In this document: one piece after another, positions 436-10,100 of the stretch
Numbering within the stretch: position 1 is the first letter of the stretch
Layout of the letters: the number at the start of each line of letters is the position of its first letter
Origin: Amoebophrya sp. A120
Taxonomy: Eukaryota; Protista; Dinoflagellata
Assembly: GCA_905178155.1 (NCBI GenBank)
Contig: CAJINV010000003.1
Coordinates: forward strand, 3,777,600-3,841,599
Length of the DNA stretch: 64,000 bases
Reading direction: 5' to 3'
Notes under the pieces: generated by a model
The model's database searches: none
Told to the model about the DNA's origin: nothing
The model's input: only the letters and a program-made list of their open reading frames with translations
Program-made: the position numbers and the translations under genes

Positions 436-3400
436 ATGTCAACTATTCCGGGAGACGGACGGCAGCATCAGCATGATCTTGCAGGCGACCCTCCAACTCA
501 CATCTCTGCTTTCAGCCTGGTTGTGCTGTTCGCGCTGTGGGTGTTTGCGCACGCATGGGGTTGCTTATTCCGTTACGTGATGAAGACACCCCCACTGCTG
601 GGCTACCTCCTGGGGGGTATTTGTTTCCGCAACGTGGGCGGTGCCGCACTGCATTTCGCACAGGCGAAGGTGAGGCAGTCACTAATACATGACAACAGCA
701 GGACAACGACCAAACCTGGCGGCCCCCCAGCGGCCGGAGATGCGGAACAAGCGAGCCAAAACCTCACTTTGATTCCCGCAGATATTTCGTCCCTCGTGCG
801 CACGCTCGGGCTCGCCACTATTCTCATGATTGCGGGATGCGAGATCGACTACCAGAAAATCCGGCGGATGGGCGGCATGTGTCTGCGGCTGACCGTGCTT
901 CCCGGCGTGAGCGAGGCCTTTGCCGTGGCTCTCGTATCCATGTATGTGTTTGGGTTTTCCCTCGCCTGGGGCCTCGTGCTGGGCTTTATCCTGGGCGCCG
1001 TGTCCCCTGCCGTGGTGTGCGGCGGTATGTTTGCGCTGCAAAAGCGCGGGTACGGTGTCGCGAAGGCGATTCCCTCTCTGGTCGTGTGCGCCGTATCAAA
1101 TGCAAAAATTTCTGGGTCTGGAAGATTGCGAGATTTGTTATGCTGATCTGGCATGGCTCTTGAATCTGTATTGCGTGGCCACAAACAACCTCTCTCGCCT
1201 GTCATGCAAAAACGCAGTTTCTCATGCGGAATACGCAGCACCGAAGCACGAAGCAACTTGTCATGCTTGGCGGCGCATTACAGTGCATTTGTATATTGAC
1301 TGACTTGCATCACAAGTTTCCAGACCCAGACATTTTTGCATTTCATACGCCGCGAGCTTGGACGACGTGGTTGCCATTTATCAAATGCAAAAATGTCTGG
1401 GTCTGCAAGAATGCAACTTGTGATGCTGCATTTGGATGTCTAAAAGATTTGTGTTGCATGAGCAGCAAAAGGAGTCTCACTTTTGCTACGCGGACAGGGC
1501 ATTTGTCATGCGGAATAGGCATCAAGAATCCCTGAAAAAACCTGTGATGCTAGGGCATGCATCACAGACATCATGGCTCATGCAAACCGTGCGTGGCATG
1601 TCTCAAAGTCAAAACCCTCCAGACCCAGACATTTTTGCATTTTATACCATTTCCGGGTTCACCACCTCGCTCGGCGTCGCCATGAGTGACATCATGCCCG
1701 CGGACGAGAGAAACCTTTTGCGGACCCTGCTGGGGCTGCCGCACGTACCTGCGCATCCCAGTTCGCACTTCTACGCGATGCTGCACGGGCCAACCAATTT
1801 GCTGCTCGGCGCGGTGCTGGGCGTCACTTTAGGTGCGGCGTTCGCGAAGCTTTGCCAAACGGACGCAGCGACGGCATCTTCATCATCATCCCGAGGGGGT
1901 CATGCAACCTCTAGTTCAACTAGCTCCTTTTGGGGTAGCGGTTCTTTCTTCGGCCGCAAGCTCCTGGCTGCCCACGCGCTCGCCCGCCGAAACGAACTGC
2001 TGCAGTCGTCTTCGTCCCGGGGACGGCGGGGCAGGAAAAAGCTGTTGCCGAATATGGTGGGGAAACTAATTTCTAATCAAAGCGACAGCTACGATCAGGG
2101 CTCTGTGTTCGGTGGTGGCCTCGGGGATGACTTGCGTCGGAGCAAGACGCCCGTGGAGCAGCTGGCGCTTGGATCAGCACGGGAGTCACGGCAAAAGATG
2201 CGCTTCATTCCGACTGCTTCTAGCCCCGCAACATCTCCAACCGGAATGGAAACGCAGCTGCCCGGAAGTGGTCGTGGTGCCGCAGAGGACCCAAACAGCC
2301 TGGAAGAGAGCAGTAGAATAACGACCGAGGTTGTAAATAATCCTACGAAGCCTGAAAATTTTCTCTCCGCTATGGTATTCGCCACTGGGTGCGGCGTTGC
2401 GATGCTCGCAGTCCACTTCCAGTACTCGGGCGCGGGGTTTCTCGCTTGTCTGTTTTTCACCTGTGCGTTTTCGCAGCTGTCGAGGCCAAAAAGTGCAACT
2501 TTGCACGGCACAACAAGTTCTAAAACCCCAGTCGGTACTAGTACAGGCGATTTTCCAGACGACGGAGCAGAGGCAACGGACCGGCACGACGAAGGAGCAA
2601 CGGGCGCTTATAGTGATTCCGGAGCGGACAGCGACGACAACAGAATAGCCATGCCCAGTCAATCGCCGACTGACGGGGGCAGCGGGACGAAAAGAGTCAT
2701 GTCGTTTGAGCTAGAAGACATCTCGCTTGCGGCGCCGAGTGCGGCGAGCGATGAGGCGAGCCACTCACTCGACTTGGATCTTCGCACAAGTAGTCCAAAG
2801 GGCGCCGCAAGAGGGGGATTTGGAACAGAAGAGAAAGACCTCCGGGTTGTACTAGGTGATACAACTGCAGTCCCCTCGAGGCAGGGCGAGGACCACTCCG
2901 TTTTCGACGTGATGGGCGCATCTCACGCCGCCGAGGACGCGGATGCGGATTTTTCGGTGCGCGAGTTGATGTTGGCCGCTGGCGCGCAGGACTACACGCC
3001 GGTCACGGCGGTGTGCCACAACCTCAGCCGGATATGGGACTGGTTCGCCGAGCCGCTGCTTTTTGGCGTGATTGGTACGGTTGTGGACGTGCGAAAGCTC
3101 CACTTTCCCACCCTTCCGAAGGCGACCTTTCTCGTCCTGTGCTGCGTGTTTTTCGTGCGCGTTCCCGCCGCCGTGTTCGCGACGAGCTTCGGCAACCTGA
3201 GCTGGCGGGAGCGGATTTTTATCGGCCTCGCGTGGATGCCGAAAGCCACGGTGCAAGCAGCCTTGGGAAGCGTTCCGCTCGATAGGCTCCATAAGATTTT
3301 GGAAACGGAACGGAGTCAAGGCGGCGGAAAGAATAGCTCTACTCCCGAGGTGGAGATGAAGGTCTTGCAGGAGTGGGGCGAAGTGATCGTGACGACCGCG

Positions 3401-3604
3401 GTCTTGTCCATTCTTCTGACGGCGCCAATAGGTCTGCTGGTCGTTTCAAAGCTCGGACCCATCATGCTCACGCGGGACGGCGATCCGTCTGCGAGTAGAA
3501 GAACATCTGGCGCCGATCATGGGGCTGTCGAGCTATCATACGCTGACAACGTCGAAGTAGATGCGACGGCCGCCTCGAGTAGCGACGCAATAGCGCGGGA
3601 GTAA
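436..3604 (+). CDS. NHA2: Na+/H+ antiporter, NHA2/SLC9B-like; exons 436-1093, 1353-1378, 1652-3604 (878 aa after removing two TIR elements)
   Basis: Motifs LGFILGAVSPAVV, EPLLFGVIG, AWMPKATVQAALG, AVLSILLTAPIG. Removing each insertion plus one TSD copy rebuilds VVCAASLDDVVAISGF, the NHA di-aspartate motif, in frame. Confidence 0.9.
1094..1347 (+). mobile_element. TIR introner, family A copy 1 (non-canonical intron)
   Basis: TATCAAATGCAAAAATTTCTGGGTCTGGAA ... TTCCAGACCCAGACATTTTTGCATTTCATA; 5-bp direct repeat CGCCG at 1089-1093 and 1348-1352. Confidence 0.93.
1379..1646 (+). mobile_element. TIR introner, family A copy 2
   Basis: TATCAAATGCAAAAATGTCTGGGTCTG ... CAGACCCAGACATTTTTGCATTTTATA; TSD CCATT at 1374-1378 and 1647-1651; contains an in-frame stop near 1421. 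Confidence 0.93.
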
Positions 3605-4131
3605 AAGCAATTTTGCAAAAATACGCTGTGCATCTTCGGATCAAAGTCCTTTTGTTTTCGTCGCCCTCGCGTCATGTCAAGGATCGCTGTGTTTTCCAAT
3701 TTCGATCTACAAGGCAGAGAGACGGTTCGGAATAGCACTCATGCTTACGACGTTGGAGATTGCACCGAGCGATATTAACAAGGAGAGGCTATCTGGCATT
3801 CAGTACTTAGCTTATATATTTCAAAGAAGTTCTCTACTAGTCATGAAACAAAAATACTTTCTCGCGCGTTTCGTTGCTTCGTCGTGAATTTCGCGGTCGC
3901 TTTCGAAGTTTTTTCATTTTTCCAAAATCGATGACCGTTTATTTTAGAAACGAAAAAATGTAACAACGTTAGTTGTACCTAAGTCCCGTATAATTGAAGC
4001 CCAACGCGCTGGTGCTCGATAAAACGCCATGCCCGCATCTTCGTAAGGGCGTTTAGTTTCTACCTGTTGCGCCGTTTTCCGTGCCGGATACAACTGCCGT
4101 AGTAGTTTCGAAAGCGCAGGGTGGAGTAGAG

Positions 4132-7100
4132 ATGGATTTCGACTATGCACTGCAAATATGTCTGGGTCTGGAAAGTTGGAATGTTAAAAAGGAATGGCAG
4201 ACGCACTGCAATACGCAGCTATGCATGACAAATTTTTTGGCTGCCATGTGTTACGTATCACGCATGGCACACTGCGTTCTTGCGTGACAGGTAAGAGTCC
4301 CTTTGCGTGCCTATGCAACACAGACTCTCGAGTCATGCCAGACAAGCATGACAAAACTGCACTCTTTCAGACCCAGACATATTTGCATTTGATATCGACT
4401 TTTCGCGCACGATGGACTCGACCTTCGAGTCGTCGGTCTGGAGCGAGCTGCCGTATCCTGAGTAAAAACGTCCCCACCCCATAGTTGTCATGCAGATTTG
4501 CGACTACAGGAAGATTTGTATATGCGCATCTCCATGAGAGGCATTTCCAATCGCGTTTTGGGATTTGTAATGCTGTGAACGGGATGAGCAGATGGATTTG
4601 TGATGCGGCTGCACTTGCTAAACTGCACCACACTAAGGACTGGAATTTGTCATGCGTTGCTCCCAAAGCTTCTGGGTTTCTGTTGCTACGTTCCCAACTT
4701 GACTATGGGGTGGGAGCGGTTTTACATATGATATGCCGCCGATTGACCTCAAGATGCGGGGTTGGCACCTCTCCGACGATCCTGCTTGGGGGACGAGTAG
4801 GAACGAGGCCATGCGAAAAACCGCGATTAAGCCTTCCGTATTCCAACAAGTGGCACAGGTACTTATGTTTAAACTAAAGGTTGTTAGATCGAAGACGTTT
4901 GTGCGTCGATCTTCGGAAAGAAAAAGAGTCCTCAACAGGGATGGAGAGCCTATGCTACAGTAAGTACATGAAAAAGACTTTGAAAATGAAAATCTTCTTT
5001 CCGATCAACTCTAAAATCAGTCTTCTTCCTCGACGAGACGGGGGTCGCGCTCGCCACCGGGAGGTCGACAGAAGTCCCCGGATTTTGTGGACACCAGCAA
5101 GGAAGCCTCCGTAAAGTACGACAATCTAATGGCCGCGGACATGGTAGACGACCCCTCTAGCTTGCGGCGATACCAGCTCATACCTGATCCGACCCGGAAG
5201 CGGCGCTTTCCGCCGAAATCGCCAAAGCACCGGACTCCCAGGTTCGTCGTCTTTGGAAAACCAGTTCTTGCGCGGATTTCTTTTCTTTGACAGTGTGGAA
5301 CATGAAAGTGAAACTACAGTAGCTCCTGGCACACTTCGAGACAAAAAAAAAACTGCCATCAACCGCATAATATTACAGTGACTTCCTGAACTACAAGAAG
5401 TTTCAGGACACGCTGCGCCGCAACAACCGAAGCACGCAGCTCACTGACACGAGCGTGGATTCGGTGTTTTCCACTTCGCCTGGCCCCCTCGTGGAGGAGC
5501 GCGCCTACACGATTCACCCGGCGGATACGTATCCCGGCGAGGTTCACGGGAGCGGAGGGCGGAAGTCGTTGCAACGGAAAAAAACCTTATGGATTGCAAA
5601 TATGTCTCGGTCTGGAAACTTGTATTGCTAAAAGCGAATGATAGACGCACTGCAATACGCAGCTATGCATGACAAACTTTCTGGCTACCATGCCTTACGT
5701 ATTCCGCATGGCACGCTGCGTTTTTGCATGACAGGCAAGAGGGCCTTTTCGTGCCTATGCAACACAGATTCTCGAGTCATGCCAGACAAGCATGACAAAC
5801 TTGCACTCTTCCAGACCCAGAAACTTTTGCATTTGATAAACCTTTGCCAGCTACAACACCGACTTGCAAGGCGAGGACGTTGGAAACCGAGGTACCGCTC
5901 TTGGTTTTTCGATCTTTTTCATGTTGAGCGTACTGCTTTTTCAACATCAGGGTTGTCGACACCACGCGCCTATCTACTTTCTCAGCTGCATTTTGGTTGC
6001 TTATTGGTTTAAAGTTAGTCTCGCATCATCATCACCCCTCTACATTTCAGACCCGCAGCGTATGCTTCCACCGAAGAAAAAATACGAGAAGGAACTTCTG
6101 TCCTCGACGGAGAGTAGTTACGTTGCACGTGCAAACGCGTCAGAGCGTCTCAAGCAATCGTATCGATACTTCTTTCTTATTTGAGTTTGTCAACATAAGG
6201 TACAAATACAAGACCACGAAACATGAAATGGAGTGTTATAGACTGAATACTTCTGTATAGTACCCGCATCCATTTGAGTCTCGTTTTGTAGTTGCCACGC
6301 TGACGTGCAACAGGTACGATCCGACACGCAAGCGGTCTCCGCGGGCGTCGCCGCTGGCGGGGCCAATCGACTATTCCAAGATCGTACGAAATATTCCGGA
6401 CGGCAAGCCGACGGTGGATGAGCAACAACAGATGATTGACCAAATGATTCGGGAAGCGGAGGAAGCGAACCGGCGCGCCAACGAGGACCCCCGAGCCGTC
6501 TCCAACGCGATGCCAGGTCCCCCGCCGGTGAAGCGAAAGCAGAAAACGCAGCAAGAGATTGTGCGGATGGGTATGTTCGGGAACGACAAGGCCGGCCGCG
6601 CGAAAGCGGAACGCCACGTGAAGGCCGCCGTGCTCGGGGAAAGTAAGCAGGGCTCATCGTCTGCGGCGTCCGCGAAGACGGGTGGGGGAGCCTCGTCTTC
6701 TTCCTCCGAGTCGAAAACCGTGACGCGTTCGCCCTCTGCAGTGCCCGTGACCACTACATCAAGTACTTCTAAATCGGAGAAGAAAATAGTAACCTCCGGA
6801 ACATCAGCTGCTTCCAGTGCAGCTGCCTCCGCACCGAAAAGCAAAAAAAGCGAACGCAAAAGCAGGAGAATAGCGGAGCCGGAAGATGTTTTGACCGTGA
6901 TATCCAGCGAGGTTGCCAGTGACGTCATGGCGGACGTGTTCGGCGCGGTGGAAACGGTGCTCAAGCCCGAGGAGCCCGAGCCCATGACTCGCAACCCTCT
7001 GATAGAATTGATAACCGGAAAACCTCCCCGAAGGCTTTCGAGGGGTGGCAGCGCGGGAATTTCGCAAACGGGCCGCGCGTGGACGCGTGGGCCACAAGGG

Positions 7101-10100
7101 GCCCGCCTTCCGTCTGGGGCAGTTTCTTTTTGAGAAACAACCTGCCAACATTCCGTCCAACAATAGGGGCAAGGCCCTTGCTTTCTGACTTCCGACAAAT
7201 CTTCATCGTTGAAAAGTGAGAAGCTACGGACTTCTCACTGCGTTTCCACTGGTCTTCTAGAAAAGGAGTGAAAAGTCAGCGACTTCTCGTTTCTGAAGCA
7301 TTTTCATTCTGGAAAAGTGAGAAATCAGTGATTCATTTGTCACTTCTGAAAAGTTTTCATGTTGAAAAGCGAGAAGTCGCTCCGCTGACTTCTGAAAAGT
7401 TTTCATTTGGGAAAAGTGAGAAATCAGTGATTTCTCACTCGGTTTCTCGAACAATCCGAGAAATGGAGTGGGAAAAATGTGATTTCTCACTTTGCAAGAC
7501 TCTCACTCTGGTCGGAGTCGCGTTGACTCTTCCCAGAGTGAGAATTTTTCAAAAGTGAGAAATCAGTGACTTCTCACTACTTTTCTCGAAGGTACCCGAG
7601 CGCCAAATTTCTTCGGGGCTCGGGTACCTTCGAGAAAAGTAGTGAGAAATCACTGATTTCTCACTTTTGAAAAATTCTCACTCTGGAGTCGGACTCCAAA
7701 AAGGTTTCCAGCCGTCAAGATTTCGCGAGAGTGAGAAATCACTGATTTCTCACTTCTTTTCTCTAAGCCTTTCGGGATGTGTAGGCGACTTCTCACTCCG
7801 AGTGAAAAAGCCAGTGAGCTTTAACTTGGTTTTTTGAATGTCTTCGGGAGGCAGCGCGAAAGCTCGCTGCGTGCGAAAAGTTAATGGAATGTCATTCCCC
7901 CACTTCTCCAGCCTATTCGTAAAATGTAGCCAATAGGAGCGGACTTTTTACTCCCTTCCTGAGGGGACCTCTGGGCGAGCCCGAAGTGCAAAGCCAGCGC
8001 GCTTTCGCTTTTGTTGTCAGCGCGCTCGCAAAGTCAGCCGGCTTTGATTGGGGGGGGATTTGTTTTGTGCCGTCGATCTTCGTGCTGCTGCAGAGGTTTG
8101 CGAAGCTTCAAAAGAACTACTAACTTACACTAGCGCGCCAAACTGATCGACTTGGCGCGGATTCTGTTTCTCGAAGGCGTCCGGAGAAATTTTCCGGCGA
8201 AAAGGAGGGGGCTTTTGCGAGTCATGGCGGACGTGTTCGGCGCGGTGGAAACGGTGCTCAAGCCCGAGGAGCCCGAGTCTGCGCCGACGTTGGAGGGCAT
8301 CAATGCGCTGCTGCCGCCCTCCGAGCGCTTCACCTTTGGAGGGTCAAGCTCGTCTTCAGCAGCTTCCTCTGATGAACTCGAGAACTACGAGCTGCAGCCA
8401 GAAGTGCAGCGACAGACAGGGAAGATCACCAGCCAAGTAGAAGGATCCGGTATAGTCCAGTCTTCAACAACAAAGCCGCTGCAAAAGAATCAGGTCGTGC
8501 CACTTCTGGCAGCTGACCCGCTCGACCCGTTGCAGGCGAGCAAAACGAGCACCGACTTGCCCACGATCGTGGCTATTTCCGAAGACGTGGAGTACTACCA
8601 GGAGGGGGATGACGGAGAACTAGAGGAAGAGAAACGCGAACTGCCCAAGTCCACCACCGAGCCCGGGCCCGGGCACTACAACGTGAAGCCGATGTGGAAC
8701 CAGGATGGCCCGACCTGGAGCATGGCGCCGTGCCCGGCCCGGGAGCTGCTCCGACAGGGGGCCACCAACTGGCTGCTGAAGCCCAGCTTCGACCTGGGCA
8801 ACCCGGGACCGGGCCAGTACGGCGACGTGGCGGGCAACAAGATCCCCTCGAAAGCGACCATCTACATGGGGATGAAGCCCGAGTTGTGGAAGCCGGAGGT
8901 GAACGACCCCCAGATTCCCACCTCCACGCACCTCTACAAACCCGGCGGCCCCTATTTCACCATCAAGGGCAAGTTACCGGCCATGAAGTCGTCCGTGACC
9001 TTCAGCTTTGAGTACCGCCCGGGGAAGGAGTTCTACGACAATAGCAAGGTAGCGTTCGATCATCGGGAGTTCTTGGATGAGTTCGGGTCCTACTACAGCC
9101 TGGATCTGTCGAAGGAAGCGAGCCGGTTCCTCTCGCCGGAGAAAACCCGCCGCAAGTTGACCGCCAGCGAAATGGAGCAGGTCCGGAAGATGGAGGCCCG
9201 GGCGCAAGAACGGGTCCGCCACCTGATGGAGGTGGATGTTGCGGGGGAGAGTGGATCAGCATCTCGGATGCTCGAGGCGGGTTCGTCCACCATGCCCGCC
9301 GGAGCCGCGAATTTGTCCATTGAGGGCACCGTGGGGAGTAGTTCTATCGCAACAGAACAAACCCTCAATAACCTGGCGTCCTCCGCGGAACTACTCCGTG
9401 GTACGAGCACGATGAATCCGGTCGGATTCAGCAAAAACGCAACTTCTTTGGAGGACGAAACGCGGGAGCCCGAGGCTTCGGCGACCACCTCAAGGGCGCT
9501 TTATGACACCTCGATCGACAGCCTGGAGTCCAACACGTCTTTGATGTTCCCACCCACGACACGCATAGACCAGCTTCGCAAGGAGCACTACATGAAGACG
9601 AGGTACTTGTTTGAAAGAACGACCCATTTATTGGGGACTCCAAGTTGCAGCTGTGTTGGGCAGACATAGTGCAACTTTTTTTTTTGCATAAATTACAGGC
9701 TTGAGAGTAGAGAGAGTGGATGAAGTTTCTGTTCCGATATTAAAGTAGAACAAATCGTGTACACAGTATAATTTATTTCTCTTTCCACCGACCTACGAAA
9801 AGGTATAAGCCTCCGTCGTACACGCAAATTGGGTTGACGGCCCGGAACCTCGACCGGTACTCCATCGCGGGGAACGACAAGCGCACAACCAGTTTCAACA
9901 CGCGGCCGACCAAAAAGCGGATGGACGCGGACCAGACCAACTGGTACGTGCAGAGCAGCGACTGCCTCATCTCCGCCGGCCTGCGGTACGCCCACCCGAA
10001 CAATTGGGTCGCGGACCCAAAGAAGGGCTTCACCCTCCTCGGCCGCGACGAGAAACCGTTTGCGCTCCCGACCGCGGGAAAAGAGGTGCCGCTGCGCGAC

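Follow-up and report, generated by a model that had tools for sequence, protein, structure and literature searches.

A 26-nt micro-exon between two introner elements in an NHA2-like antiporter gene of Amoebophrya sp. A120: competing hairpin pairings and a possible role for transcription order

Introduction

The introner elements of Amoebophrya sp. A120, as described by Farhat et al. 2021 (PMC7789003), are RNA-supported introns of about 250 nt that carry inverted and direct repeats at their borders, begin the inverted repeat with TAT followed by 7 nt and AAA, and have ends other than GT-AG. The same source counts 29,850 repeated introns in A120, reports that U1 was not found, gives more than 60% of the introns of A120 and A25 as lacking canonical ends, and states the excision mechanism as open. 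The main text of that paper, its supplementary figures aside, does not treat micro-exons between copies, competing pairings of the terminal inverted repeats (TIRs), spacer lengths or the cut register. A literature search, limited mainly to openly accessible papers, listed no work on Amoebophrya introners that deals with micro-exons, with skipping or with the register of the cut.

Introners derived from MITEs, with TIRs and target-site duplications (TSDs), are described as making introns in algae and other eukaryotes, with tens of them in single A120 genes (Gozashti et al. 2022, PMC9860276; 2025, PMC12130899), and the same reports give a bias of introners to nucleosome linkers in many species. 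For the nonconventional introns of Euglena, experiments are reported to show that the length of the spacer from a terminal motif sets the cut sites (Nomura et al. 2025, PMC12501133).

Here we describe a 64-kb window of the Amoebophrya sp. A120 genome (the whole stretch of DNA that was analysed) in which two TAT…ATA elements, E1 and E2, bracket a 26-nt exon of an NHA2-like antiporter gene. Both are known Amoebophrya introner elements, members of a described class and already annotated: they have TIRs at the intron ends, a direct repeat within the 3-5-nt range, TAT followed by 7 variable nt and at least 3 A, recurrence, and absence from RNA combined with presence in DNA. They differ from the published description in TIR length, which is at least 27 nt here vs the 8-20 nt reported (PMC7789003).

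Results

The first antiporter exon (436..1093, forward strand, aa 1-219) ends in the upstream TSD copy of E1, CGCCG at 1089-1093. E1 itself occupies 1094..1347 (254 nt, no strand assigned), with TIRs of about 27-36 nt and TAT…ATA ends, and is followed by its downstream CGCCG copy (1348..1352, forward strand), which is likely intronic, a register drawn from two loci of a related assembly (L044 and L038, below). The micro-exon (1353..1378, forward strand) encodes (A)SLDDVVAI, including D223/D224, and holds at its end the upstream TSD copy of E2, CCATT at 1374-1378. E2 (1379..1646, 268 nt, no strand assigned) has TIRs of the same family as E1; its downstream CCATT copy (1647..1651, forward strand) is likely intronic, judged from sequence, and the third exon (1652..3604, forward strand) encodes aa 229-878 and the stop. 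Both TSDs are perfect over 5 nt, and the distance between E1 and E2 is 31 nt, or 26 nt after one TSD copy is dropped per element. The coordinates, TSDs and peptide of the preliminary description were rechecked on the sequence and stand as given.

All four ends of E1 and E2 match a common 27-nt TIR with 0-1 mismatch. This is not a chance likeness, because the same TIR recurs at two more elements of the window and in at least 157 copies in the related assembly. The E1 stem additionally reaches into its near-palindromic TSD, with arms at 1088-1131 and 1310-1353. Due to the duplications, the edges of the micro-exon are ambiguous by 5 and 6 nt, so that it may be placed anywhere from 1348-1373 to 1353-1378/79.

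Removal of both elements yields an 878-aa open reading frame (436-3604) reading VVCAASLDDVVAISGF, and retention of E1 or E2 leads to a stop after residue 236 or 242, respectively. Skipping of the micro-exon at equal register shifts the frame, with a stop after residue 231. A cut exactly at the outer TIR ends would instead stay in frame, with loss of SLDDVVA and a product of 871 aa.

The joined protein is identical (100%) to the annotated A120 protein P0001, i.e., the public gene model already carries the micro-exon. Both flanking exons match the Pfam domain Na_H_Exchanger (E 2.4e-6 for exon 1 and 6.5e-10 for exon 3), and the nearest solved relative is human NHA2 (7b4l; E 2.4e-20 with exon 1). 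Alignment of the protein to this structure (E 3.2e-45) is free of gaps over aa 117-242 of A120 and 172-297 of NHA2, and places D223/D224, the pair encoded by the micro-exon, on D278/D279. In human NHA2 these are described as the ion-binding aspartates, and the D278C/D279C double mutant as giving poor salt rescue in yeast (PMC12072577). The DD pair is conserved in 119/119 homologues (P0002-P0120), nine of which were also aligned; P0002 is 55% identical to the A120 protein. The identification of this pair as the ion-binding motif of an NHA2-type antiporter, made in the preliminary description, is borne out by this alignment and conservation. By its domain and DD position the gene is a candidate NHA2/SLC9B-like cation/proton antiporter; the likeness to human NHA2 (SLC9B2) lies in the position of the pair and the gap-free core, and transport is a prediction from sequence. 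The A120 protein differs from human NHA2 in its length of 878 aa, with long low-complexity insertions.

Three further non-canonical elements lie in the next gene, none of them with an assigned strand. E3 (4144..4394, TSD TCGAC) belongs to the family of E1 in the opposite orientation, and its joint, 4138>4395, was found in 4/4 RNA-like runs. A 54-nt exon separates it from E4 (4454..4733, TSD TGCCG), which also has TAT…ATA ends but a TIR of another kind; its joint, 4448>4734, was again found in 4/4 runs. E5 (5588..5838, TSD AACCT; joint 5581>5838 in 4/4 runs) is of the family of E1-E3, and a 52-nt exon lies between it and a GT-AG intron. The family has four copies in the window (E1, E2, E3 and E5). 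Over 4144-5838 this gene mixes three non-canonical elements with GT-AG introns, and its family copies, E3 and E5, are opposite to E1/E2.

Hairpin and TSD scans of the 58 kb beyond E5 (5839-64000) turned up no other TAT…ATA element that was convincing. Five elements in the first 6 kb vs none convincing in the last 58 kb are consistent with strong clustering. Separately, an exact 57-nt direct repeat (VMADVFGAVETVLKPEEPE) is present at 6924-6980 and 8221-8277, in frame in both copies, and encloses 1.3 kb that include an array of palindromic repeats (7183-7800). Were one copy and the insert removed, two open frames would be joined, and the arrangement resembles that left by a large insertion whose duplication is unusually long.

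Eight of twelve listed sequencing runs (X1, X3-X6 and X10-X12) were compared with the window. None of the runs listed as containing the sequence is recorded as RNA. Run types were inferred from the coverage of introns and intergenic DNA, and the four RNA-like runs (X3-X6) come from one sample. X3-X6 behave as RNA because the GT-AG introns of the next gene are absent from them; X3 also has no cover at 3639-3852. The DNA-like run, X1, keeps these introns and covers intergenic DNA. In X3, a single 2483-nt contig (contig 2) consists of 597-1088, the 26 nt of the micro-exon and 1647-3611; its flanks are free of mismatches, and its joints are 1088>1348 (ambiguous by 5 nt) and 1373>1647 (ambiguous by 6 nt). 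Contig 19 of X6 has the same layout, record positions 196 and 223 being separated by 26 nt. The micro-exon is therefore bridged and exactly included in contigs of 2/4 RNA-like runs; X4 and X5 have no piece across the site among the pieces listed. Three raw RNA runs (X10-X12) gave 2-6 partial TIR reads each, none of them on exons.

Each element is absent from the RNA contigs together with exactly one 5-nt duplication, and the 26-nt exon is kept; at all five elements of the window (5/5, E1-E5) exactly one TSD copy is lost. The view that both excisions have to be precise to the nucleotide agrees with the exact joints in X3 and X6 and with the retention of both elements in X1. An absence of the micro-exon from all mRNA had been named as the observation that would speak against it, and the X3 and X6 contigs include the exon. 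A skip joint was not found among the 12 X3 joints listed, a count in which contigs drop rare forms and decay of a frameshifted mRNA could hide skipping. GT/GC-AG or AT-AC ends were found at no register of the ambiguous junction in any of the RNA-confirmed elements (0/5); E1 and E4 give GT…CC at register 4.

Hairpins with direct repeats are a known signature of reverse-transcriptase template-switch artefacts, and the RNA evidence consists of cDNA-derived contigs throughout. The joints might accordingly be switches across the hairpins, which short direct repeats flank, in a broken gene. We regard this as very improbable: the joined form is assembled at all five elements, including E4 with its weak TIR, and an artefact would tend toward the nested fold favoured in the folding described below. 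Additionally, the open reading frame is intact and conserved, retention of the elements gives stops, and mismatches in imperfect TSDs show the excess of synonymous changes reported below.

A second explanation, which we consider just as improbable, is that the elements are excised from DNA, by somatic or allelic loss, and that the RNA derives from templates free of them. The elements do resemble DNA transposons, and the single DNA-like run may be the source of the window itself. Nevertheless, at both outer junctions X1 contigs cross between exon and TIR without a break (300-1121 for E1, and 1618-4171, TIR to exon, for E2), and no exon-exon joint was found among the X1 joints listed. Perfect loss of one TSD copy is also not known as the usual footprint of cut-and-paste excision.

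A scan with the TIR picked at least 156 loci from one metagenome assembly, 80 of them with wide flanks, in which elements were called by script. Where they were compared, two of its genes agree letter for letter with A120 proteins, for which reason the assembly is taken to come from a very close relative of A120. The loci hold at least 157 family copies; a perfect 5-nt TSD is present in 126 of the 157 listed, among which at least one is a duplicate (L022 and L080 are the same site, with 1 difference in 800 nt). The terminal triplets are conserved (TAT in 152/157 and ATA in 151/157 listed copies), and element lengths among the matches listed peak near 150 and 260 nt. Two over-long copies with intact TSDs, L059:571-1051 (481 nt) and L061:1815-2445 (631 nt), are possibly elements nested in elements. 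One contig from a viral collection carries a lone TIR-like match that lacks a full element (L157:1501-1520) and is probably due to chance or a fragment.

Short exons between elements are frequent in this assembly. Among the matches listed, neighbouring elements, whatever their family, are separated by 133 spacers. Of these, 79 measure 26-90 nt (four at 26-31 nt and 75 at 32-90 nt), only one falls at 150-199 nt, and none (0/133) is 25 nt or shorter; under an exponential fit, 23-27 of them should be shorter than 26 nt. For same-family neighbours (n=22 listed) the shortest spacer is 39 nt, and 12/22 are at most 81 nt. At L038, a 35-nt exon between two family copies is kept in the annotated A120 protein P0242, which matches verbatim. 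At L015:549-1755, four tandem family copies are separated by exons of 54, 48 and 45 nt, and two of the TSDs are imperfect but synonymous. L015 may encode a channel-like C-terminal region, IP3R/RyR-like by its motifs; the segment had no Pfam or PDB match, and Pfam named 2/38 of the flanking segments of the related-assembly loci. The micro-exon layout is thus common and the antiporter locus not special, its 31-nt spacer lying near the floor of the distribution and not different in kind. The floor could reflect a minimum exon size, the footprint of the insertion machinery, chromatin phasing or assembly bias, as very short spacers may be lost in short-read assembly. Nucleosome-linker phasing was considered as the source of the spacer peak, and the 54 spacers above 90 nt among the matches listed have no clear period.

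The outer TIRs (left of E1, right of E2) are complementary. The inner TIRs are complementary as well and would close a 31-nt loop around the micro-exon, a pairing absent from the preliminary description. The latter had noted that the outer TIRs could pair across the exon, and folding, the check it proposed, shows a real competition in which the nested fold, which would skip the exon, is at least as stable as the cognate one. The minimum-energy fold of 1050-1700 is the nested one (-254.2 vs -247.8 kcal/mol for the cognate fold at 37 C), and it is also best at 20 C. At 5/5 flank sizes the nested fold beats the cognate one, by 3.1-13.4 kcal/mol, a gap of 1-7% of the total energy and within model error. 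Across 14 folded same-family pairs of the related assembly, the nested fold was favoured on both strands in 8/14 and the cognate fold on either strand in 5/14, among them the L038 pair. Compared with the error of the model, the gaps between nested and cognate folds are small, so the cautious conclusion is that equilibrium folding, as modelled, would not select the correct partners.

Folding of transcript prefixes gave a different order. The cognate E1 hairpin was the best fold in 7/8 prefixes ending at 1335-1500, the one exception being the prefix ending at 1408, in which the inner hairpin between the right TIR of E1 and the left TIR of E2 was preferred; the nested fold takes over from 1620. 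The near-palindromic CGCCG extends the E1 stem, which reaches -51.0 kcal/mol vs -41.2 for the outer pair. These computed prefixes support, without showing it, a commitment of the hairpins in the order of transcription. What is new here is a predicted preference of 3-13 kcal/mol for the wrong, exon-skipping pairing, together with the earlier formation of the correct hairpin in the modelled prefixes.

The paradox of a wrong best fold would disappear if the hairpin played no part, i.e., if proteins or snRNPs recognised the TIR ends as linear signals and linked each 5' TAT to the first ATA downstream of it, in the manner of intron definition. The conserved terminal triplets fit such a route, as does the removal of E4 and E5 (14/20 complementary end bases) as well as of E1 and E2, and most spliceosome parts are described as present (PMC7789003). 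Transposition, however, explains the terminal conservation equally, and helices of 27 bp (about -40 kcal/mol) would form and mask the signals unless unwound. We consider linear signals an unlikely explanation, though one that deserves some weight. Elements are spliced whether oriented like E1/E2 or like E3/E5, which agrees with symmetric TIRs on a hairpin model and on a linear one alike.

The role of the TSDs was assessed on imperfect copies. Mismatches at 1-2 positions occur in 27/157 listed copies and are spread over positions 1-5 (5, 6, 5, 10 and 4, respectively); three or more mismatches are found in only 4. Removal of the element plus 5 nt gave the best frame continuity in 9/15 imperfect vs 43/73 perfect TSD copies. 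A codon model, trained with one out-of-frame segment excluded, set strand and frame for 28/45 imperfect-TSD sites above its cut-off, 17 being dropped, and 15 of these 28 confident TSD mismatches were synonymous vs 25% expected (p=0.001). Such an excess is expected if one TSD copy is coding and the gene functional. Two imperfect-TSD loci match annotated A120 proteins. Exact TSD identity is not required for removal, because copies with imperfect TSDs are no rarer than perfect ones at positions that restore the frame, and because they show the synonymous excess.

These counts bear on whether the TSDs define the junction, either the machinery or an RNA strand exchange aligning the two 5-nt copies and rejecting the outer pair. 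The outer copies, CGCCG and CCATT, match at only 1/5 positions, one TSD copy is lost at every element of the window, and most listed TSDs are perfect, with few carrying three or more mismatches. Identical TSDs were seen in 0 neighbour pairs among the 100 spacers listed, as is expected by chance anyway. Young insertions, on the other hand, also have perfect TSDs, a fixed ruler gives identical products, and 1-2 mismatches, which between them affect every one of the five positions, are borne by copies in genes that show signs of selection. The earlier proposal that the differing TSDs enforce correct pairing is weakened by this tolerance; what survives is that a 4/5 match is still distinguishable from the 1/5 match of the outer pair. 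We therefore judge TSD matching to be improbable, to about the same degree as linear signals.

Two imperfect TSDs were informative about where the cut falls, one with a mismatch at position 4 and one at position 1, both read from protein conservation and gene models. At L044, a Rab5-like gene, the upstream TSD copy at position 4 gives Ala, as in the A120 protein P0123 and in 103/116 homologues, and the downstream copy would give Asp, found in 7/116. At L038, position 1 of the upstream copy yields Gly, present in 117/119 homologues, where Glu occurs in none. Both cases thus appear to keep the upstream copy, and the cut likely falls after position 4 or 5. An informative mismatch at position 5 was not found among the sites passing the codon model. 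A bias of the TSDs to the proto-splice site AG|GT was likewise not found (10/217 vs 7.4 expected), and the 77 oriented TSDs are only roughly oriented, by ORF length, with the wrong strand at L038 and L064.

Discussion

We propose that the correct partners are chosen by the order of transcription and not by the duplications, through hairpins that commit in sequence and are cut by a ruler, a reading on which our own confidence is evenly balanced. In the computed folds, the two TIRs of E1 would pair with each other before transcription reaches the left TIR of E2, and the near-palindromic TSD would clamp the E1 stem, which is the best fold in most prefixes up to about 1500. E1 would then be committed or removed while trapped in its cognate fold, and E2 would be left without a competitor; the full pre-mRNA, by contrast, would relax to the nested, exon-skipping fold. 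The two imperfect TSDs suggest that the cut may be measured from the TIR ends, falling at or one base before TAT on the 5' side and 4-5 nt past ATA on the 3' side. The TSD would make the join scarless but need not be read. The putative catalyst is most likely a U1-independent spliceosome route, as Farhat et al. suggest (PMC7789003). A skipped product, with its frame shift and stop after residue 231, would likely be degraded.

A model based on linear motifs or on reading of the TSDs explains the inclusion of the micro-exon equally well. If order-dependent commitment with a ruler does apply beyond this gene, tens of thousands of introns might be cut by a structure-guided ruler that needs neither U1 nor splice dinucleotides nor TSD identity: hairpins would be committed during transcription, before the skipping fold can form, one cut would fall at the 5' TAT and the other 4-5 nt beyond the 3' ATA, and an exon shorter than about 21 nt would be unworkable, giving the spacing floor. 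We offer this wider claim tentatively, and lean somewhat against it as a whole.

Altogether, the likely new constraints on any model are a wrong fold no less stable than the right one, a dispensable TSD identity, a cut that probably lies late in the TSD, and a floor to the spacers. The locus itself is ordinary and annotated; its use is that its geometry separates three models, namely transcription order, TSD matching and linear signals. With imperfect TSDs, in turn, existing RNA-seq could be used to locate the otherwise hidden cut. Knowing the rule for excision would fix gene prediction in Amoebophrya parasites and allow comparison with the independently evolved system of Euglena.

The closest comparisons outside Amoebophrya are of two kinds. 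MITE-derived introners share with E1/E2 that they are non-autonomous TIR elements forming introns, and within this group the introners of Micromonas and Aureococcus are described as having canonical splice motifs (PMC7789003), whereas E1/E2 have none. Euglenid nonconventional introns share a proposed MITE-like origin, paired ends, TSD-like repeats at the junctions and ends other than GT-AG, as far as these are described in PMC12501133 and PMC11282704. They belong to an independent lineage, however, for which circular excised introns are among the reported features. The Euglena signature given in PMC12501133, 5'-N3CDG…CHG N5-6 with spacers of 3 nt and 5-6 nt, is absent here, positions +4 to +6 of E1/E2 being CAA at register 5 or TCA at register 4. 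The fixed-spacer ruler of Euglena may thus serve as an analogy for the cuts suggested at E1 and E2, and does not imply membership of these elements in the euglenid class.
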